In this document: one piece after another, positions 5,463-40,389 of the stretch
Position numbering within the stretch: position 1 is the stretch's first letter
Layout of the letters: the number at the start of each line of letters is the position of its first letter
IMG/VR virus record: IMGVR_UViG_3300025012_000053
Coordinates: 30,415 to 94,414 of that record
Strand: one strand, 5' to 3'
Source: a virus
Length of the DNA: 64,000 bases
Program-made: the position numbers and the translations under genes
The notes under the pieces: generated by a model
Databases searched by the model: none
Told to the model about the DNA's origin: nothing
The model's input: only the letters and a program-made list of their open reading frames with translations

Positions 5463-7313
5463 CTATTGTGTATATGGTCCACCTTTATTAAACCAGAAAG
5501 CACCACTCTCATCATAAAGGAATGCTAACAGATCCCTGTCATTAGGACCTGTATCAAAAGCAAATCCTGCCTCAGTATAATATGTTCCTGTAAGAGACAA
5601 GACATGATCTCCTGTATTATCCTGGATTATCTTTAAATTACCCTGATCTCCACTTACTACATTTGATATTATAAGAGTACAATCCTGAACAAGAGTAAGC
5701 TTTGCATTATATCCCTGCGTTACATCCCAATGAATTCCTGCTGTAGCATTATCAAGAATGATAAATGTCTTTGGCGCTTCTGCAGGTCCTGTAGGACCAG
5801 TACTACCAACTCCTGTTGCACCTGTAGGACCTATTGATCCTGTAACACCAGTTGGTCCTATTGCTCCCTGTGTGGCAAAAACTACAAGATCAACCCTCGA
5901 TACTCCCACAACACCTGTACCGGAATATCTCCTCATCCTTCCCTTAACATTATATGTTCCGGCAACAAGTGATGATGATCTTTTAACAACAGGGATAACG
6001 ATATAAGTAGGAGTGGTAGTAAGATAGGCAAATACCTCATCGGTATCAACACCATTGATCTGAAGAGTTAATCCTATTACTGAAGCACCACCGGAAACAA
6101 GTTCACATTGACAATTCATAATAGCCATTATCTCAACAGTAGATTCAAGAGTTATTGATGTTGTCACTCCTGTAATATCTATGAGTGTTGCTGAAGTGGT
6201 AGTTCTTAATGTCTCCATCTCGACAAATGAACTTGGGATCTTTCCCGCTACAGCATCAGCCCCTGCAGCACCAGTAGGTCCGGTTGCTCCTACAGCACCT
6301 GTCGCTCCATCTGCACCTGTGACACCCGCACCTGTGGGCCCTACTGGACCAGTGATTGAAGGTCCTGTTGGTCCAATGGATCCGGTTACACCATCAGCAC
6401 CTGTAGGACCTGTTATACTTGACCCTGTCGGTCCTGTAGCTCCGGTAGGTCCAGCAACAGTAGAATCTGCACCGGTTGGTCCGGTTGATCCTGTAGGTCC
6501 TGCAGGACCAGTAGCACCAGGTGAATATGCTCCACCATAAAGATTTATAATCCAGTCTGAATACGTACCTGATCCTGTATGGTTAACAGAAACCATAGAT
6601 AACTCTCCTGAAGCTGCTGTATAATTTACTACAGTAGCACGGAATAGATTATTAATATCATAAGCAACAACAATATCCTGTCCTAATGTAAATGCTCTTC
6701 CTGTAGAACATATCATATCTATTCCTGTAGGATGAGTTGTTGGAAGTGTTTCTGTTCCAGTAGATGTAGATGCAAATCTATCGGCATATCCTGTTGGACC
6801 TATTGATCCTATTGGTCCTGAAGGTCCTGTTGGTCCTGCCACTGTTGAGTCAGTGCCCGTTGGCCCTGCATTACCTGTTAATCCTATTGGACCAGTTGCT
6901 CCTGTAGAACCAGTTGGACCTGTATTCCCATCTGCACCTGTCGGACCAGTATCTCCTGGTATTATTGATGCGGCTCCTGTCGGACCTGTAGCACCAGTAG
7001 GTCCATCATCTCCTGTATTACCATCAGATCCTGTTACTCCTATAGGTCCTGTTGGTCCTGTAGAACCGGTTGCACCGTCTGCACCTATATCACCTGTTGG
7101 TCCTGATGGACCTGTAGGTCCAGTACCAGAAGATCCTGTTGGTCCAGTCGGACCTGTGGCTCCTATTCCTATAGGTCCGGTAGCACCGGCCACGCTAATA
7201 GTTTCTCCTGTAAGAAGAATAATATTTTTCTTATCATCCCTGGCCGGTTCAATAAATATATTACCACCATCGAGTTGTGGAGAAGGACCTAAGAATTGTG
7301 CACCGGTTGACAT
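5463..7313 (-). CDS. collagen-like (Gly-X-Thr) fibre protein
   Basis: Three blocks of GPT/GAT/GST triplets separated by globular domains; C-terminal phage fibre-like domain. Confidence 0.85.
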
Positions 7314-15127: not shown

Positions 15128-16612
15128 TTAATTCAATACGCTTGGTTTAATGGTAGCGCACCTGGTAGGATCGTTAACCAGACAACCGCCAACGAATGCA
15201 CGGTGGAATGTGTAGCCATCTTCAGGAGAAGACATGAATCTCCGTGGTCCCTGTGCCTGGAACGGATCTCTCAAACCGGGTTGATAACCCATGAAATCTT
15301 CCATTCCTTCATTATATACAGGACGGATATTATCCTCTCCACCGGTACGTCCAACATTAAGGATCTGGTATACATAACTCTGTGCAACACCTTTTCCGGA
15401 TGGATGCATGATCTTATTACGTTCCCTGTCATCAAATGTTGAATCAACCATGACACCAAGTTGTGTTCCATCAGGACCCCAGTATTCTACATAGTTCTCA
15501 TGATATCCCCAGCCATTACCGGATTTATATTTCTCATCTCCGGAATAGAAAGGTGTATAGAGAGTAGTATAGTTCTTGATTGCCTTATGGAAGTTATATG
15601 CTCCCCACTTACCGGTACGCATGATCACTTTTCTTGTCTGACCATAACCACCTTTAGTATCATCGGTAAGATCCATGATAGCTTCGGTAAGCCATTCGAT
15701 ATCAACATCAAAATCATTGTAATAAAGAACATTCGATGCTTCAATCTGCTGTTCGAGGCCGGCACCCTGTTCGATCTTGAACCCGCTGTAACCAATTTGC
15801 TTGAAAGTACCATCGTCTGCACGGTTGGTAGTTGCAAAGTTGATCAGCTTATCCTTCATATCCTGGAACTGTGTTTCAAATTCCCAGTCTGCATACTGAG
15901 TCCATGTAGTCATGATTTTCTCTTTGCCATTCGAATCCATTGCCTTCCATGAGAAAGCTACCGGCCTTGAGATCATATTACCTGGTCTGGTGTCCTGCAT
16001 CCTGATCATCGAGAAGGTGTTCTTCATCGAGAAAGGACTGGTATAGTTCGGGGTTCCACCTTTTATTGATAGTGTCTTTTCAACAATGGACCATTCTTTT
16101 GAAAACCTTTTTCCGGCTACGAGTTCATCGTAAGGAATATAGAGATCAGTGTCTCCTGTGAAAAGTTCGCATTCATAATCCCACATGGTCCCGTTTGGAA
16201 CCGGTATAGCTACAATCCTGATCGGGTATACAGAATTCTTTTCACCAACTATCAGGTTAGTGTCTGAGAAATACTGTTCCGGGAATGTAAGAGTAAACCT
16301 TGCACTGCTACGGCCAACCTGTGAGGTTGCAGAAATAGCACTGCCATTTACTGTACAAGCAATCAAAGGCACGTTCTTTTTTGAAGAACCCTGTAGCCTC
16401 CAACGAAAATCGTCATCTGTCTTTAAGGTCAGAGGACTGAATTTCTGAAGAACAAGACCGAAGTTTGTTCCCCTGTTGGCGCGATACAGCATGTTGATCA
16501 TCTGGCTCGTGTCCTGTGGTTTGTTTTGATAGATCGCACCCAAGTGGTTTTTGGTTGTTAAACCAGACCAGTCTTTGGGTTCATACTCCTGAAGTGGTGA
16601 TACTCGTTGCAT
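15128..16612 (-). CDS. major capsid protein (crAss-like HK97 fold)
   Basis: 494 aa; WSGLTTKNHLG start, DDDFRWRLQG, GAGLEQQI, GLRDPF, DPTR end; downstream of portal and scaffold. Confidence 0.85.
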   Translation of the reverse strand: MQRVSPLQEYEPKDWSGLTTKNHLGAIYQNKPQDTSQMINMLYRANRGTNFGLVLQKFSPLTLKTDDDFRWRLQGSSKKNVPLIACTVNGSAISATSQVGRSSARFTLTFPEQYFSDTNLIVGEKNSVYPIRIVAIPVPNGTMWDYECELFTGDTDLYIPYDELVAGKRFSKEWSIVEKTLSIKGGTPNYTSPFSMKNTFSMIRMQDTRPGNMISRPVAFSWKAMDSNGKEKIMTTWTQYADWEFETQFQDMKDKLINFATTNRADDGTFKQIGYSGFKIEQGAGLEQQIEASNVLYYNDFDVDIEWLTEAIMDLTDDTKGGYGQTRKVIMRTGKWGAYNFHKAIKNYTTLYTPFYSGDEKYKSGNGWGYHENYVEYWGPDGTQLGVMVDSTFDDRERNKIMHPSGKGVAQSYVYQILNVGRTGGEDNIRPVYNEGMEDFMGYQPGLRDPFQAQGPRRFMSSPEDGYTFHRAFVGGCLVNDPTRCATIKPSVLN

Positions 16613-20532: not shown

Positions 20533-22659
20533 TTAATTTTTATTACGATTTTCTAACTGAAGTCTTTTATTGATTGTTGAGAATGGATTCGATTCCTGTT
20601 TCAGTTTTTCCTGGAACATCTCCATCCTTTTAAAGAAAGGGCTTAAAGCATCTTGTGGTTTCTTATCCATGTCATCAGGGTGAATATGCTGCATGTCCTC
20701 TTTAAGTATCATAAGCATCTGTAAAGCATCAACCCTATCAAAGTTACCCTTTGGATTCCAATATATTAACTCCTGTAATAAAGGAATTGAACGGATTCTA
20801 TGGAGATTTAATATTTCACTACCAGGTTCTATAGATGTTGTCAGCCAGATAAGTATTTGTTCTCTTCCCCATTTCTGTATAGGAGCCGTTCCTGGCGTTC
20901 CTTTACCTCTGTTTAACAGAGACTTATCGAATATCTTATCAACGATTATCTTGGGAGTATCACATAGTAAATGTGCTGAGTGTCTGTTATTTAAATATGT
21001 AAATAAACCTTTCCAGTTATTTTCATAGTTACAAATAGCTCTGTAATAGATTAGTAACCTTCTTACTCCTTCATAATATTCATTTGCAGTGGAGGGACGA
21101 CCGGTATATTCTGCAACTATCCTCTCCGTAATCCGGTTCATTATGAATGTACTACCAAGAGAATCAGTAGTACTCTTATCATGATCATAAGTATCATTAC
21201 CGGCAATATATATACCCCATGGAATAACACCATCTATAATAACCGGTTGTTCGTATATTATTATTGCACCCTGCAGATTGCGTTTATCAAGTTCCGGGAA
21301 CCTTCTTATAGGATGAAGATCGGCACTTGGTTTCCATTCTATCTTTTGTGTCTCTTCATTTATCTCAAGAAAACCAACATATTCCTGTTCTTCATATTTT
21401 TCAGGATTAGAAGTAAGATGATTAAGATGATGTTTAAGATCATTGATAGGAAAGATAGTCCCACCAATACGCATAACAGCTTCCTGGGGTGTACGTGGTT
21501 CTTCTGCAATGAATCTTATAATGGTTTCAGGGTTCTTTGTTGCTTTAATAATCTTATTCCTTGAATGATCAACCATCTCCCTGGCAATATCTTTTAATGA
21601 ATTTCCATCCTTATCCATTGCTCCTTCAAGATTCTGTTCAATAGAAACAAAATGACCACACTTACTATTCAAAGATCCTTCATCCCATATATTAGGAACC
21701 TGATGAATATTATATGCATCACCCTGGTAGAATAACTGTTCAAGTCCCATAAAATCAGAGTCTTCCGTACCCCCGGTCCCAAAACTTACGGCTAAACCAT
21801 GAGTAAGACGACCCTGTTGCATGCTTTTTAACGAGATGTTCCATGCCTGAAGAAGATTAGGATTCTTACCCGATTCCTCATAGATCAAAAGTTTACCACC
21901 CTTCCCCCTTACTTTTTGATAATCATTCTTCATTGAGATACCCATTATTTCACTCTTGAATCCTTTCTCAATCTTAAGACCTTTCTGATCTACTATATAA
22001 GATGATCTCTTATACATTGTAGTATCATGCTTCTGTCTTCTTTTTCCCCAGGGTGTATGTTGTTCGATATGATCCATCATCTCCCATGCTTTTGAGAGAA
22101 GACCATCTTCAATAAGGAATGCTTTATCATCTGCAAATACAAAACTCTTGGATCCTGGAATAAGATAATAGTTCCTATCGCACATTGAACCAGCCTTGTA
22201 ACTATATCCTCTACGTCTTGATTTAATTACAACGCCATGTTCACCATTTGCTTCTGCATCATCAAGATACCAGAAATACTGATAATCACCATCCCAGAAA
22301 TCAGGAAGAGTAAAAACACGATCTGCTTTTGCCTGTTGGTAAAGTTTAGCGACTGCATCCTGATCCGTTTCATCATCAGGAATATCAATTTCTATAGCTT
22401 TATAAATAGGACTGTAATTAAGGTAGAAATAAAAATAGCCGGGGATCTTATCCCGGCCTATATCATATCCATATACTGATCGTCTTGCTTCTTCTTCCCA
22501 GAATTTATAATACCTGGATGACGGATGATCATTTACAGGATAGTTAGTATATCTTTCAAACTCGTTAAAATGTAAAGCGCTCTCGCGCCATACCTCAGTA
22601 TTATAGTGTAATGTATTCTTAAAATAACCTGTTTCTATAATTGCCTTGTTGTCATCCAT
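20533..22659 (-). CDS. terL: terminase large subunit
   Basis: KSRRRGYSY Walker A variant, LIYEESG Walker B, FGTGG, IAGNDTYD RNase-H motif, GNFDRV. Confidence 0.9.
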   Translation of the reverse strand: MDDNKAIIETGYFKNTLHYNTEVWRESALHFNEFERYTNYPVNDHPSSRYYKFWEEEARRSVYGYDIGRDKIPGYFYFYLNYSPIYKAIEIDIPDDETDQDAVAKLYQQAKADRVFTLPDFWDGDYQYFWYLDDAEANGEHGVVIKSRRRGYSYKAGSMCDRNYYLIPGSKSFVFADDKAFLIEDGLLSKAWEMMDHIEQHTPWGKRRQKHDTTMYKRSSYIVDQKGLKIEKGFKSEIMGISMKNDYQKVRGKGGKLLIYEESGKNPNLLQAWNISLKSMQQGRLTHGLAVSFGTGGTEDSDFMGLEQLFYQGDAYNIHQVPNIWDEGSLNSKCGHFVSIEQNLEGAMDKDGNSLKDIAREMVDHSRNKIIKATKNPETIIRFIAEEPRTPQEAVMRIGGTIFPINDLKHHLNHLTSNPEKYEEQEYVGFLEINEETQKIEWKPSADLHPIRRFPELDKRNLQGAIIIYEQPVIIDGVIPWGIYIAGNDTYDHDKSTTDSLGSTFIMNRITERIVAEYTGRPSTANEYYEGVRRLLIYYRAICNYENNWKGLFTYLNNRHSAHLLCDTPKIIVDKIFDKSLLNRGKGTPGTAPIQKWGREQILIWLTTSIEPGSEILNLHRIRSIPLLQELIYWNPKGNFDRVDALQMLMILKEDMQHIHPDDMDKKPQDALSPFFKRMEMFQEKLKQESNPFSTINKRLQLENRNKN

Positions 22660-30562: not shown

Positions 30563-31385
30563 TATATATTTTGAGTAAGATTTTTTCCGGCAACTCCCTT
30601 CCATTATATGGTATTGCACGGGATATTGAGGACCTGTATTGTTTTGATATCTCAAGATCCCTGTTATTAGTTTCATAATCCCATGTCATCCACATATCAA
30701 GCCAGTTTTCATCAGGGATCGAGTCTCTTATCACGGCAGAGAACGCGAGGGCTGTAAGATGCTTCCAGTACATCACCTTCTCTGATATAGCAAATCCGAA
30801 ATTATGAACAAAGCTATTGAGGACTTTTATGTTACTTGTCTCTCCATTTCCTTTTGTTACCGGTAATTTTGATAAGTTTGTCATGTTCCAGAATACTACT
30901 CCTGTCCTGGCTGGTCTTTCCGGAATACGAAATAAATGAGTCTTCCATAACTCTACCTGTTTTGTCTTCGCGGATTGATATCCTTTCTCGATAAACTCAT
31001 TAAAGGATGCTTCAACCTGGTCCTTTCGAAATACATGATCAACTTCCGGGATAATAAATATATCAGGTTTGCCATGATTGGGAATGACATAGTTGTTTAT
31101 AAGTGTGGTGTAAAGATTCCAGGGTACGGAATAAGGATTCATCTCTTTAGTCTGCTCGATAAGGATTATCTTCGAATTATTAAGATCCCTGATCTTTTGA
31201 ACCACGTCATCAAACTTCTCAGGAAACTTAATCTTTACACCTTTATATATACACTCAGATACATTTCCCCAGGGTTTGTTTGTCCAGAATACAAATATTC
31301 TATCAACGTGATCAATGATCGATAATATAGATTCCTGAATGTAATCTTCCCCATAGAGACACCGGTAGACCGCGTATGTTATCAT
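30516..31385 (-). CDS. GT-A fold glycosyltransferase-like protein
   Basis: YGEDYIQESILSIIDHVDRIFV N-terminus; EVD in place of DxD; HNFGFA. Confidence 0.65.
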   Translation of the reverse strand: MITYAVYRCLYGEDYIQESILSIIDHVDRIFVFWTNKPWGNVSECIYKGVKIKFPEKFDDVVQKIRDLNNSKIILIEQTKEMNPYSVPWNLYTTLINNYVIPNHGKPDIFIIPEVDHVFRKDQVEASFNEFIEKGYQSAKTKQVELWKTHLFRIPERPARTGVVFWNMTNLSKLPVTKGNGETSNIKVLNSFVHNFGFAISEKVMYWKHLTALAFSAVIRDSIPDENWLDMWMTWDYETNNRDLEISKQYRSSISRAIPYNGRELPEKILLKIYNETNPSDIAAFFEQT

Positions 31386-31603
31386 ATCTTAAACCTGTCA
31401 AGTTTCTCCTGCAGTTCCTTTATCCTATCCTTAAGCTGGCCAATAACCATTATAAGTACAAATATTGTCATCCCGGATACAAGTAACCAGTGACCAATTC
31501 TTGGTATACCAAGGAACCAAAGTAACCAGGCAAGAATGGTTGTTAGCCAGATAATAGTTGAAGTCATATTTTCTTTTAAATAACGTAAAATAATGTTTGT
31601 CAT
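31382..31603 (-). CDS. small membrane protein (2 TM)
   Basis: Two hydrophobic stretches; ATGA overlaps with both neighbours. Confidence 0.6.
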   Translation of the reverse strand: MTNIILRYLKENMTSTIIWLTTILAWLLWFLGIPRIGHWLLVSGMTIFVLIMVIGQLKDRIKELQEKLDRFKI

Positions 31604-32349: not shown

Positions 32350-32654
32350 ATTTTTTTCATTATTAAATTCTTAAATATTATAACTTTCTCAGCAGTATAT
32401 GGAGTCCTGAAACTTGTACCAAAAGCATAGAATATAATATCTCTTGTCATAGTGTCATCATCTATATCCGGGTCAACCCAAAAAGCGCCGATCTCATTTT
32501 CATCAATATATAAATCAGTAAGTTTCTCTTTAACATCAAGATCTGCTTTTGTGACTTTGTTTTTCTCAAAGCCCATAGTCTCATTTTCATCCAGAAGTTT
32601 CTGTATCTTTTCTTTCTTTGAAGTATCGACAATATATATCTGTAGTAGTATCAT
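32346..32654 (-). CDS. hypothetical protein
   Basis: 102 aa ORF with ATGA-coupled overlaps. Confidence 0.6.
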   Translation of the reverse strand: MILLQIYIVDTSKKEKIQKLLDENETMGFEKNKVTKADLDVKEKLTDLYIDENEIGAFWVDPDIDDDTMTRDIIFYAFGTSFRTPYTAEKVIIFKNLIMKKI

Positions 32655-32929
32655 TTAATATAATATTTTGCATATTCATCAATCGCTTTATTGAAATTGA
32701 TCAATCCCTGTTTTCCAGTAAACATTATATAAACTCTATCTGAAACTACAGGATCACAACCAATATAATAATTATCTCTTATTGTAGATAACTTGTTCTT
32801 CCAATTGATAGGTTGTACAAGTTGCATAGGGGCAAGTTTGACAGGTTCTTCTGGAATAAGTAGTTTTGGTGCAATAACACCAGCTGCTACAACTGCAGGG
32901 ATTAACCTGAGAAATTTTCGTCTATCCAT
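32651..32929 (-). CDS. small protein with Tat-like signal and a capsid-like peptide
   Basis: MDRRKFL twin-arginine motif; C-terminal 22 aa are 13/22 identical to a segment of this phage's MCP. Confidence 0.65.
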   Translation of the reverse strand: MDRRKFLRLIPAVVAAGVIAPKLLIPEEPVKLAPMQLVQPINWKNKLSTIRDNYYIGCDPVVSDRVYIMFTGKQGLINFNKAIDEYAKYYIK

Positions 32930-33305
32930 AAATTAATGAAATATCATATATCCCTAATTCTCTCCTTTTTTTTATTATCTCACCTATTTCGATAGGCAGA
33001 TACGCAGTTATTTCTGTAGACATCATAAAGTCATAAAAAACTTCTCGTGGTAAATATTCAGCAAAATGAAACATTATATCAGTACATCGTTTTGACCATA
33101 TAAAACATTCATTTAATTCTTTTCTGAATCGTTGTCTTTCGATATTTCTCTGTCTGAATTCTTCATGTATTTTTTCTCTGTTCGATTCAATCTCAGACAT
33201 ACATTCACGATATTCTTTGTCTGATTTAATATTATTATTCATATCACTCCATTTAATATAAAAATAGATTGCAACGAATATTGGTAATAAATATAATATT
33301 TCCAT
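32922..33305 (-). CDS. hypothetical protein with N-terminal TM helix
   Basis: MEILYLLPIFVAIYFYIKW. Confidence 0.55.
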   Translation of the reverse strand: MEILYLLPIFVAIYFYIKWSDMNNNIKSDKEYRECMSEIESNREKIHEEFRQRNIERQRFRKELNECFIWSKRCTDIMFHFAEYLPREVFYDFMMSTEITAYLPIEIGEIIKKRRELGIYDISLIYG

Positions 33306-33856: not shown

Positions 33857-34434
33857 TATTTTTTCTTTTTGTCTGTCTTTTCTTTTCCGAATACATTATC
33901 AAGGAATTCTTCGTTGCCGGCCATCTGATTCCATATCTCAGTCTTTTCATAATCAGGTATATCCTTAATCTTACAAAGCCTTAACTGCTTATCAATGTAA
34001 GTAAAGAAGTAATATCGGCCCTTGTATGCAAGTCGCGCAGTGAACTTCTCATCCAGGTTCATCTCTACCAGTCCTCTTTTGATCTTTGCAGCTGTATCCT
34101 TTACATTCTGTACTGTTACATTGTAAGCTTCAAGAGCCCGCTTCTGATTCTCCTTAGCTGCTGATAATTCCAGTTCGGCTTTTGATAATGCTTCACCAAA
34201 CTTAGGAAGAACATCTTCGAGTATCTCTGTATAGTTCCTTCTTAATTCAACCTTCTCATGAGTATCCATTAACCGGTTGGTTGTTACCGGTTGATTAAAT
34301 GAAGTGAAATGAGTACCAAGAAACTTTGCAGCTTCATCCCAATCAGGGAATTCTCCAAGAGATTCCGGAACTCCTGTTCCGTCATTTGAAATAGCAAACT
34401 CAATGTTTACAGGGCGATAGAATTCTTCTTTCAT
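33856..34434 (-). CDS. hypothetical protein (coiled coil; Bacteroidota phage-type)
   Basis: 192 aa ORF in operon. Confidence 0.6.
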   Translation of the reverse strand: MKEEFYRPVNIEFAISNDGTGVPESLGEFPDWDEAAKFLGTHFTSFNQPVTTNRLMDTHEKVELRRNYTEILEDVLPKFGEALSKAELELSAAKENQKRALEAYNVTVQNVKDTAAKIKRGLVEMNLDEKFTARLAYKGRYYFFTYIDKQLRLCKIKDIPDYEKTEIWNQMAGNEEFLDNVFGKEKTDKKKK

Positions 34435-35129
34435 TTTAATAATCGTTTTAAGTTATACTTCTTATCTATTGTAGTGAACATCTTAAGCTGTTCTATAAGT
34501 AACTGTATATTAACAGATGATGGTTCAGGCATATCATTATTACCACTATCAGCACCTATATTGACCTGCTGAGGATGACATACCTTAATAAGCCCAACCA
34601 TTGACTACAAATCAAAGTCCATGATAGGTTCGATAGTTACATATGTCTTAAAGTACTTTGAGATCCTATCCATGGCTCCTGATCTCTGTATAGGTCTGGG
34701 ACAATTTCCCATTATCTCAGGATACCACCTGTTAGTCTCTATTGTAGTACATATCACGGAATTCTTAGGTATCTGACCCAGGTAGTCAAGGATCCTCCCT
34801 GGATTCTTTGTCTGAAATAGATACTTTGCATCATACTTCCTGCAGTGATTGAGAACATCAAGGATGACACATCCTGATACTTCATACGAGAATAGATCAT
34901 TCTGGGCTGCTACAAAGATAAACTGATCACTGGTGAACACATCCTTCATACAAGAGTCATCAAGATGAAGAGGTCCTGAATACTTCTTTGCTATAACAGG
35001 ATATCTCTTTGACAGCTTATAAGTACTACAATAAGTACACTTATGAGAACATTCTCCGGCAAGAGGGTTCCAGGTATGAGTTATAAATTGGTACATGTTA
35101 GATCCTGGTTTGACTTTATTTAGTGCCAT
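34431..35129 (-). pseudogene. DUF5131/Gp37-Gp68-type radical-SAM-like protein interrupted by an in-frame TAG at 34605-34607
   Basis: TWNPLAGECSHKCTYC, FQTKNP, VTIEPI; the frame continues past TAG as SMVGLIKVCHPQQVNIGADSGNNDMPEP...KRLLK to a TGA overlapping the next ATG. Confidence 0.75.
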
Positions 35130-35286
35130 CTTGTTCTTTTTGTATGTTCCATTTATAATCGTGTTCAGGTAATTCTTTTGGCGGAATAGAATTCTTATTA
35201 AAATAACTTGCAATATATATCATTGCTTGGTTATACATATTATAATAAGGTATCATTAATTCAATGATGGATCTTTTCTTTTTCAT
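35116..35286 (-). CDS. small hypothetical protein (56 aa)
   Basis: MKKKRSIIELMIPYY...; fills the gap with overlaps at both ends. Confidence 0.5.
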   Translation of the reverse strand: MKKKRSIIELMIPYYNMYNQAMIYIASYFNKNSIPPKELPEHDYKWNIQKEQDGTK

Positions 35287-40293: not shown

Positions 40294-40366
40294 AGTCCTT
40301 TGGTGTAATTGGCAACACATTAGATTTTGATTCTAAGGAGTTCAGGTTCGATCCCTGAAGGGACTA
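40294..40366 (+). tRNA. tRNA-Gln (anticodon TTG)
   Basis: Acceptor AGTCCTT/AGGGACT, D-arm GTGT/ACAC, anticodon arm TTAGA-TTTTGAT-TCTAA, T-arm TCAGG-TTCGATC-CCTGA; no encoded CCA. Confidence 0.9.
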
Positions 40367-40389
40367 CAAATAATAATATACTCTTAATT

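Follow-up and report, generated by a model that had tools for sequence, protein, structure and literature searches.

A small accessory gene of an uncultured crAss-like phage with a putative Tat-type leader and a tail probably descended from the capsid protein

Satellites use capsid or scaffold mimics (CpmB, Ccm): SaPI CpmB, a scaffold mimic, and SaPIbov5 Ccm, a capsid-protein homologue, are head-protein derivatives that compete at capsid interfaces. The N-arm and the A-domain core take part in subunit contacts in HK97-fold shells. Some bacterial defence systems also sense capsid proteins or peptides, for example CapRel, and Lit through the T4 gp23 peptide Gol; to our knowledge, Gol is not encoded by a gene of its own, carries no leader and plays no part in counter-defence. 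Small membrane proteins encoded by phages frequently act in exclusion or lysis (T4 Imm, Sp, RI), and conflict genes often sit in variable genomic slots. No paper on genes joining an export leader to a fragment of the phage's own capsid protein was found in the open literature searched, and the design is also absent from Pfam, PHROGs and NCBIfam. Here we describe a mini-protein that appears to be built in this way, and compare its locus with these systems.

The mini-gene and its variable surroundings

The window analysed, a stretch of 64,000 nt, covers positions 30,415-94,414 of the IMG/VR virus record IMGVR_UViG_3300025012_000053. This record (94,414 bp, estimated completeness 97%) encodes its own capsid protein (MCP), portal and terminase (TerL), and its source is an uncultured crAss-like phage. 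The mini-gene lies near the start of a leftward transcription unit, surrounded by small ORFs, between two coupled neighbours:

32651..32929, minus strand: mini-protein gene, 92 codons plus a TGA stop
32922..33305, minus strand: upstream coupled ORF, 127 aa, with an N-terminal hydrophobic segment
32346..32654, minus strand: downstream coupled ORF, 102 aa, followed by a glycosyltransferase / radical-SAM operon

The ATG of the mini-gene is 8 nt inside the end of the 127-aa ORF, its TGA overlaps the ATG of the 102-aa ORF (ATGA), and the same start/stop coupling is found at the homologous gene of the related contig L001. The exact mini-protein is recorded on 38 contigs from four sources, and the leaders of the window and L001 proteins share 21 of 28 residues, with seven synonymous codon differences. 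Because of the coupled starts and stops in both phages, the 38 contigs and the synonymous differences in the leader codons, the ORF is almost certainly a real gene, and it appears from these codon patterns to be under purifying selection. Searches of Pfam, PHROGs and NCBIfam assigned the mini-protein to no family.

The genes downstream encode a methyltransferase, radical-SAM enzymes, a UDP-glucose dehydrogenase fusion and two glycosyltransferases; the two glycosyltransferase genes are separated by a 73-aa ORF (window 31382-31603, minus strand) that has two hydrophobic segments and no PHROGs family match. A RiPP precursor (conserved leader, variable core, radical-SAM/glycosyltransferase neighbours) was considered and set aside, since the operon is present in the related genomes G001 and G002 without the mini-gene. 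L001, which carries an MCP 90% identical to that of the window on the same contig (L007), has the gene arrangement of the window. The downstream 102-aa ORF is conserved in L001 (118 aa) and in G001/G002 (121 aa), and no homologue of the upstream 127-aa ORF is present in L001 or G001. In G001 and G002, whose MCPs are 88% identical, the flanking genes are present and the syntenic slot contains no family member; G011 (88% complete) has no family member either. Since the slot is empty in G001/G002 and G011 has no member, the mini-gene is accessory, one of the small accessory genes in a variable slot.

Other small genes of this island were noted. A 51-53-aa ORF with one hydrophobic segment (L001:6122-6277, plus strand; L057:2566-2727, minus strand) separates the mini-gene position from the conserved 102-121-aa gene in L001 and G001, and is absent from the window; it adds one more variable gene of small membrane type to the island. 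In L001, the family member is immediately preceded by a leaderless 55-aa ORF (5657-5824, plus strand) in which the strand-helix motif described below recurs (BLASTP E 0.004 to the window mini-protein, within the genome ORF set); this ORF may be a tandem paralogue that lacks the export-type leader. The phrog_2045 gene of the window (34431-35213, minus strand) has one in-frame TAG at 34602-34604, where an intact 231-aa homologue in L001 (2611-3306) has Gln. The only tRNA-Gln of the genome is an ordinary tRNA-Gln(UUG) (40294-40367) and TAG ends 7 of the 57 long ORFs, which makes a nonsense variant seem likelier than recoding at this position; recoding of stop codons that would alter the ORF limits is, for the same two reasons, unsupported.

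The tail of the mini-protein and the capsid protein

The initial annotation had proposed, from the letters alone, that the C-terminus of the mini-protein is a copy of a peptide of the phage's own capsid protein. The segments compared are the following:

15128..16612, minus strand: MCP gene, 494 aa, crAss-type HK97 fold (Pfam Crass_capsid, E 2.9e-120)
15557..15634, minus strand: MCP residues 327-352, counterpart of the mini-protein C-terminus, with a predicted strand (327-333) and helix (335-346)
32660..32743, minus strand: probable homologue of the A-domain strand and helix, mini-protein residues 63-90 (MCP 325-352)
16523..16606, minus strand: N-arm of the MCP (residues 3-30), the counterpart of the family's N-arm-like motif
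32801..32839, minus strand: candidate degenerate copy of the MCP N-arm motif, residues 31-43 (MCP 3-15), weak for the mini-protein alone and clearer in relatives
32744..32800, minus strand: linker, residues 44-62, with the motifs KN.LST.R and Y.IGCDP, disordered in the AF2 model

The MCP matches PhiCrAss001 gp32 (PDB 7QOF) with an E of 7.7e-85, but its identity to the MCPs of crAss-like phages in culture or in GenBank is low, at about 37%. Residues 65-90 of the mini-protein align without gaps to MCP 327-352 with 14 of 26 positions identical (pairwise BLASTP E 1e-5), in a region where R327, R332, T333, G334, W336, G337 and A338 are invariant among 27 MCPs. As the initial reader had been free to compare any pair of proteins, the comparison was corrected for the whole genome using its full set of 430 six-frame ORFs (40 aa or longer), among which the MCP is the top non-self BLASTP match of the mini-protein (E 0.001). 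The shuffle-based control that had been suggested together with the original claim was also significant: the Smith-Waterman score of the two proteins is 63, compared to 29.0 +/- 4.3 for the shuffles, the best of which reached 61 (0 of 2000 at 63), and the C-terminal match is thereby borne out.

The profile comparisons gave the same result. On a profile of 44 clade MCPs the mini-protein scores 11.7 bits, exceeding all 3900 shuffled family sequences and likewise all 4600 of a second set, and this profile finds the mini-protein as the sole non-self match over the genome ORFs (E 0.0015; runner-up 0.54). The match covers the clade profile at 325-352 only, compared to about 490 aa for a full-length HK97 fold with I-domain. 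On Pfam Crass_capsid (PF23898) the score is 11.3 bits (E 0.11, profile positions 320-345), below the gathering cut-off of 27. The mini-protein thus scores alike on the general crAss profile and on that of its own clade (11.3 and 11.7 bits), giving no sign that the piece tracks its own MCP. Because the pairwise, shuffle, whole-genome and reverse profile tests agree, descent of the mini-protein from a crAss-type MCP is considered very probable on sequence grounds.

The word copy was less fortunate than the claim of capsid origin. Nucleotide identity between the C-terminal segment and the MCP gene is 54%, and third codon positions are identical in 9 of 26 cases, which is near random; a recent copy or a gene conversion from the MCP gene was therefore rejected, and the relation is an old one held at the protein level, that of a diverged homologue. 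A second BLASTP HSP joins residues 31-53 of the mini-protein to MCP 3-30 (pairwise E 0.011), and the protein may also hold a remnant of the MCP N-arm. The linker may originate from MCP 197-216, from MCP 284-300 or from TerL.

In the linker, the initial annotation had likened YYIGCDP to the terminase nuclease motif and had called the protein a mosaic. The strings do exist (IYIAGNDT is present in TerL at residue 483), but the mini-protein, run against a 28-sequence TerL profile alongside shuffled controls, reaches E 0.8 at positions 489-501, which is at chance level, and the resemblance was rejected. What is left of the mosaic is the MCP piece and the Tat-type leader; the terminase component is unsupported. 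P0014 alone among the relatives has a marginal TerL match (9.5 bits, BLAST E 4.8e-5, with 1 of the 3900 first-set shuffles scoring higher). It pairs P0014 residues 42-74 with TerL 122-154 (window 22201-22299) over a 34-residue stretch, 47% identical, that takes in the P-loop-like K-S-R-R-R-G-Y-S in the ATPase domain together with the residues directly preceding it, and not the nuclease motif; this stretch is not clearly common to other members. As separate observations on this gene, TerL is found in six related IMG/VR contigs (L075, L076, L079, L090, L078, L082) as continuous ORFs of 893-1077 aa compared to about 708, which suggests in-frame, intein-like insertions of roughly 190-370 residues, and in L080, L081 and L083 only TerL residues 289-708 were matched, which suggests a split or interrupted gene.

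The AF2 model of the mini-protein (13-sequence alignment) has helices at 3-24 and 73-90 and disorder at 30-66, with a mean pLDDT of 64 and about 85 in the leader helix. We read the product as three parts: a nearly invariant Tat-type leader forming one predicted helix, a linker predicted to be disordered, and a C-terminal strand with an amphipathic helix. A fold search with this low-confidence model (pLDDT 64) gave no matches, a result that carries little weight. The MCP model was poor (pLDDT 47) and its secondary structure alone was used; the mapping of the peptide on the MCP, another check proposed at the outset, could accordingly place the strand (327-333) and the helix (335-346), within the limits of that model.

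The small homologues that the initial annotation had proposed to look for do exist. A family of at least 23 members (sequence clusters), all metagenomic, emerged from exhaustive and word-indexed searches of proteins together with one IMG/VR locus; its members are 68-127 aa long and include the L001 gene. No relatives were found in GenBank phages or bacterial genomes, nor in IMG/VR besides L001, and a protein search with the leader alone gave no further members. P0013 (1745 aa), from the library search, was discarded as a tandem-repeat artefact. The members share the leader M-[DNKE]-R-[RK]-x-F-L, followed by a hydrophobic stretch and an invariant Pro21, and diverge in sequence after it. For 20 of the 23, the best match to the clade MCP profile is at the N-arm (residues 3-22, with hits in P0009, P0006 and P0010), at the hairpin and start of the long spine helix (residues 217-261) or at the A-domain helix, strand and helix (residues 283-355), and the order of these three sites is always that of the MCP. 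P0007 and P0023 have two or three MCP pieces each, in order. P0019 aligns to the MCP over 60 residues (MCP 284-350); it reaches 29.3 bits with the clade profile and, at 284-345 of Pfam Crass_capsid, 40.4 bits, above the cut-off of 27; in a tblastn search with P0019 over 50,697 phage records, all matches lie inside crAss MCP genes. Crass_capsid is among the Pfam matches (E <= 1) of 9 of the 23 members, more than any other Pfam family, and hhalign of the family against MCPs gave E 1.6e-4. The W..AEW.F sub-family has its best MCP site at 235-254 (E 0.0056), with a weaker alternative at 305-353 (E 0.29). The family profile, built without MCP sequences, finds the MCP gene alone in G001, G002 and G004, records without the mini-gene. 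Similarity is thus above chance after genome correction and recurs at the same MCP positions in independent relatives.

The tails may be one contiguous A-domain piece with deletions, or several pieces. The simplest reading of these sequences would be a single MCP-derived ancestor followed by lineage-specific losses. The retained residues are those of the conserved strand-turn-helix core, which plain descent predicts with no need of mimicry.

The low-confidence fold, the small size of the family and its patchy distribution are what a functionless ORF would show, either a decaying remnant of an MCP duplicate or a chance ORF. Set against this are at least 23 diverged intact ORFs of similar size, a leader conserved despite synonymous changes, neighbour coupling conserved in two phages, and capsid-like residues kept though silent sites are saturated. 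A relic is disfavoured because every lineage retains capsid-like residues, and absence of function is very improbable.

The leader and its putative targeting

32846..32929, minus strand: twin-arginine-type leader or signal-anchor, residues 1-28, with RRKFL, an Ala/Val/Gly h-region, invariant Pro21 and a basic c-region

Tat accepts small unstructured hydrophilic proteins, and SlyD and other chaperones bind Tat leaders (PMC13673990).

The twin-arginine-like N-terminus noticed in the first reading holds up as a pattern. Residues 2-7 are D-R-R-K-F-L, in agreement with Z-R-R-x-hydrophobic-hydrophobic, and R3, F6 and L7 are invariant and R4 nearly so among 13 members. The h-region of 13 residues has a mean Kyte-Doolittle value of 2.23 and is followed by Lys, as expected for the hydrophobic and basic regions of such leaders; the best 19-residue window has a mean hydrophobicity of 1.92, so that a membrane anchor is equally possible. 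On TIGR01409 the mini-protein scores 12.3 bits, short of the curated cut-off of 16.7, which four relatives pass (P0019, P0027, P0029 and P0031; 17.0-18.1 bits), the match being weaker in others. In the PDB, the family profile matches the TorA signal peptide best, at a non-significant E of 0.39, and atlas features indicate Tat-signal clusters. Among the ORFs of the genome this is the sole Tat-like N-terminus. The leader pattern search also recovered L004, a secreted bacterial glycosidase with a genuine Tat signal, which was excluded as a relative. Taken from its sequence, the leader probably gives Tat-type targeting.

There is no AxA-type signal peptidase site in the leader. Its sole candidate, the Ala-type site V-I-A, is directly followed by Pro21, invariant in the family, which makes it plausible that the leader is an uncleaved signal-anchor. 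A lipoprotein, with I-G-C as lipobox, was rejected: the Cys is residue 58, far from the leader, and is missing in L001. The leader is the best-conserved part of the family, with a mean pairwise identity of 49.5% compared to 23% elsewhere, which points to purifying selection stronger than that acting on ordinary signal peptides.

This conservation bears directly on the main idea of the initial annotation, a decoy or sponge that would act in the cytoplasm by occupying an MCP-sensing host defence protein and not triggering it. The mini-protein is capsid-derived, conserved, accessory and carried in a variable island, as such a decoy would be, and L001 has the leaderless 55-aa ORF, a possible paralogue of the strand-helix, just upstream. 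The most conserved element is, however, an export-type leader, leading out of the cytoplasm or to its edge, and the hosts have no known cognate sensor. A plain cytoplasmic decoy is disfavoured because the leader is both the most conserved part and of export type, and we regard it as doubtful; a mimic at the membrane is still compatible with these data.

Proposed function and comparison with known systems

The reading that we tentatively prefer, with a probability of about 0.3, is a capsid mimic that would act at the envelope (membrane or periplasm) in phage-host or phage-phage conflict. The leader would take the mini-protein to the cytoplasmic membrane or the Tat translocon, where the protein may stay as an uncleaved signal-anchor, and the tail would be unfolded until a partner binds it. 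Once bound, the tail could mimic a capsid surface or strand and titrate or mislocalise whatever normally recognises the MCP. The partner might come from the host, as a sensor or a chaperone, or be some component of a related phage that co-infects or superinfects, and the mini-protein would then be a conflict or exclusion device and not a building block of the virion. It counts against an envelope mimic that no partner is obvious for a piece of capsid located beyond the cytoplasm.

Several of the same observations would also be accounted for by exaptation without mimicry, in which an MCP fragment was recruited long ago as the strand-helix module of a small membrane protein; that protein could now exclude superinfecting phages at the envelope, time lysis or help the adjacent glycosylation operon. 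The similarity to the MCP is old, the tail is mostly disordered, the best-conserved part is the leader, and the gene is flanked by small ORFs of membrane type and by the glycosyltransferase / radical-SAM operon, all of which suits this explanation. It sits less well with lineages that keep different capsid pieces with capsid-like residues, which is odd for a generic helix, and help to glycosylation is opposed by the presence of the sugar operon in G001/G002 without the mini-gene. We consider exaptation possible, if on balance unlikely.

The pieces retained by the family, N-arm and A-domain core, would further suit an assembly modulator or a chaperone handle, in which N-arm and strand-helix dock on MCP, scaffold or chaperone. 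The Tat-type leader would in that case be a chaperone-binding or membrane-tethering handle, and the protein would time assembly or poison that of co-infecting relatives. Chaperones including SlyD bind Tat leaders (PMC13673990), and capsid and scaffold mimics of satellites offer a precedent; the mini-gene is, against this, dispensable in close relatives, and both forms of the explanation seem improbable.

Extended beyond this locus, the envelope mimic would become a broader proposal: Tat-type leaders on pieces of a phage's own virion proteins as a general, so far undescribed conflict device of tailed phages, Crassvirales included. The leader would drag or tether a capsid-peptide binder (a capsid-sensing immune protein or a rival phage component) to the Tat translocon or the periplasm, with removal by 'hitchhiking' and not by simple titration. 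Such a generalisation is speculative and, at present, rather unlikely to hold.

An export-type leader on fragments of the phage's own shell protein recurs across a family of diverged crAss-like phages. Most crAss-like accessory genes have no assigned role, and this one now has a defined origin and a testable localisation. If the tails do mimic capsid, the genes would point to still unknown capsid-recognising factors of host or phage, and would provide a simple experimental handle, the proteins being small and easily expressed.

Compared with the systems described, the closest relative by descent is the crassvirus MCP itself (PF23898; PhiCrAss001 gp32, 7QOF), to whose A-domain strand-helix residues 63-90 are very probably homologous; in the relatives the N-arm, MCP 196-256 and MCP 283-355 follow one another as they do in the MCP. 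The mini-proteins differ in keeping about 30-70 of the 494 residues and in missing the I-domain, the P-domain sheet and the C-terminal half, an HK97 fold being for this reason impossible; the mini-protein has in addition an export-type leader and its gene sits outside the head module. The leader resembles Tat signals (TIGR01409, PF10518), including the uncleaved Rieske-type signal-anchors, in its RR-x-F-L, its Ala/Gly/Val h-region ending in Pro and its basic c-region. It differs from them in being phage-encoded, far more conserved and without an AxA site, and its cargo, a putative export substrate, is a predicted unfolded capsid fragment and not a cofactor enzyme.

The exclusion and lysis proteins of the envelope (T4 Imm, Sp and RI, HK97 gp15) are similar in size, in their single N-terminal hydrophobic segment and in being accessory, whereas they are unrelated in sequence, not built from capsid, and Sec-type rather than Tat-type. 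With the Gol peptide of T4 gp23 and the Lit protease, the mini-protein would share the use of a short internal MCP segment as the recognised unit, but Gol lies within the capsid protein and sets off a defence, and T4 gp23 belongs to a different capsid family. SaPI CpmB and SaPIbov5 Ccm are, like the mini-protein, small or paralogous and derived from head-assembly proteins; they are encoded by satellites, cytoplasmic and leaderless, with a complete fold or a binding helix, whereas the mini-gene is carried by a phage, in a 97% complete genome with its own MCP, portal and TerL.
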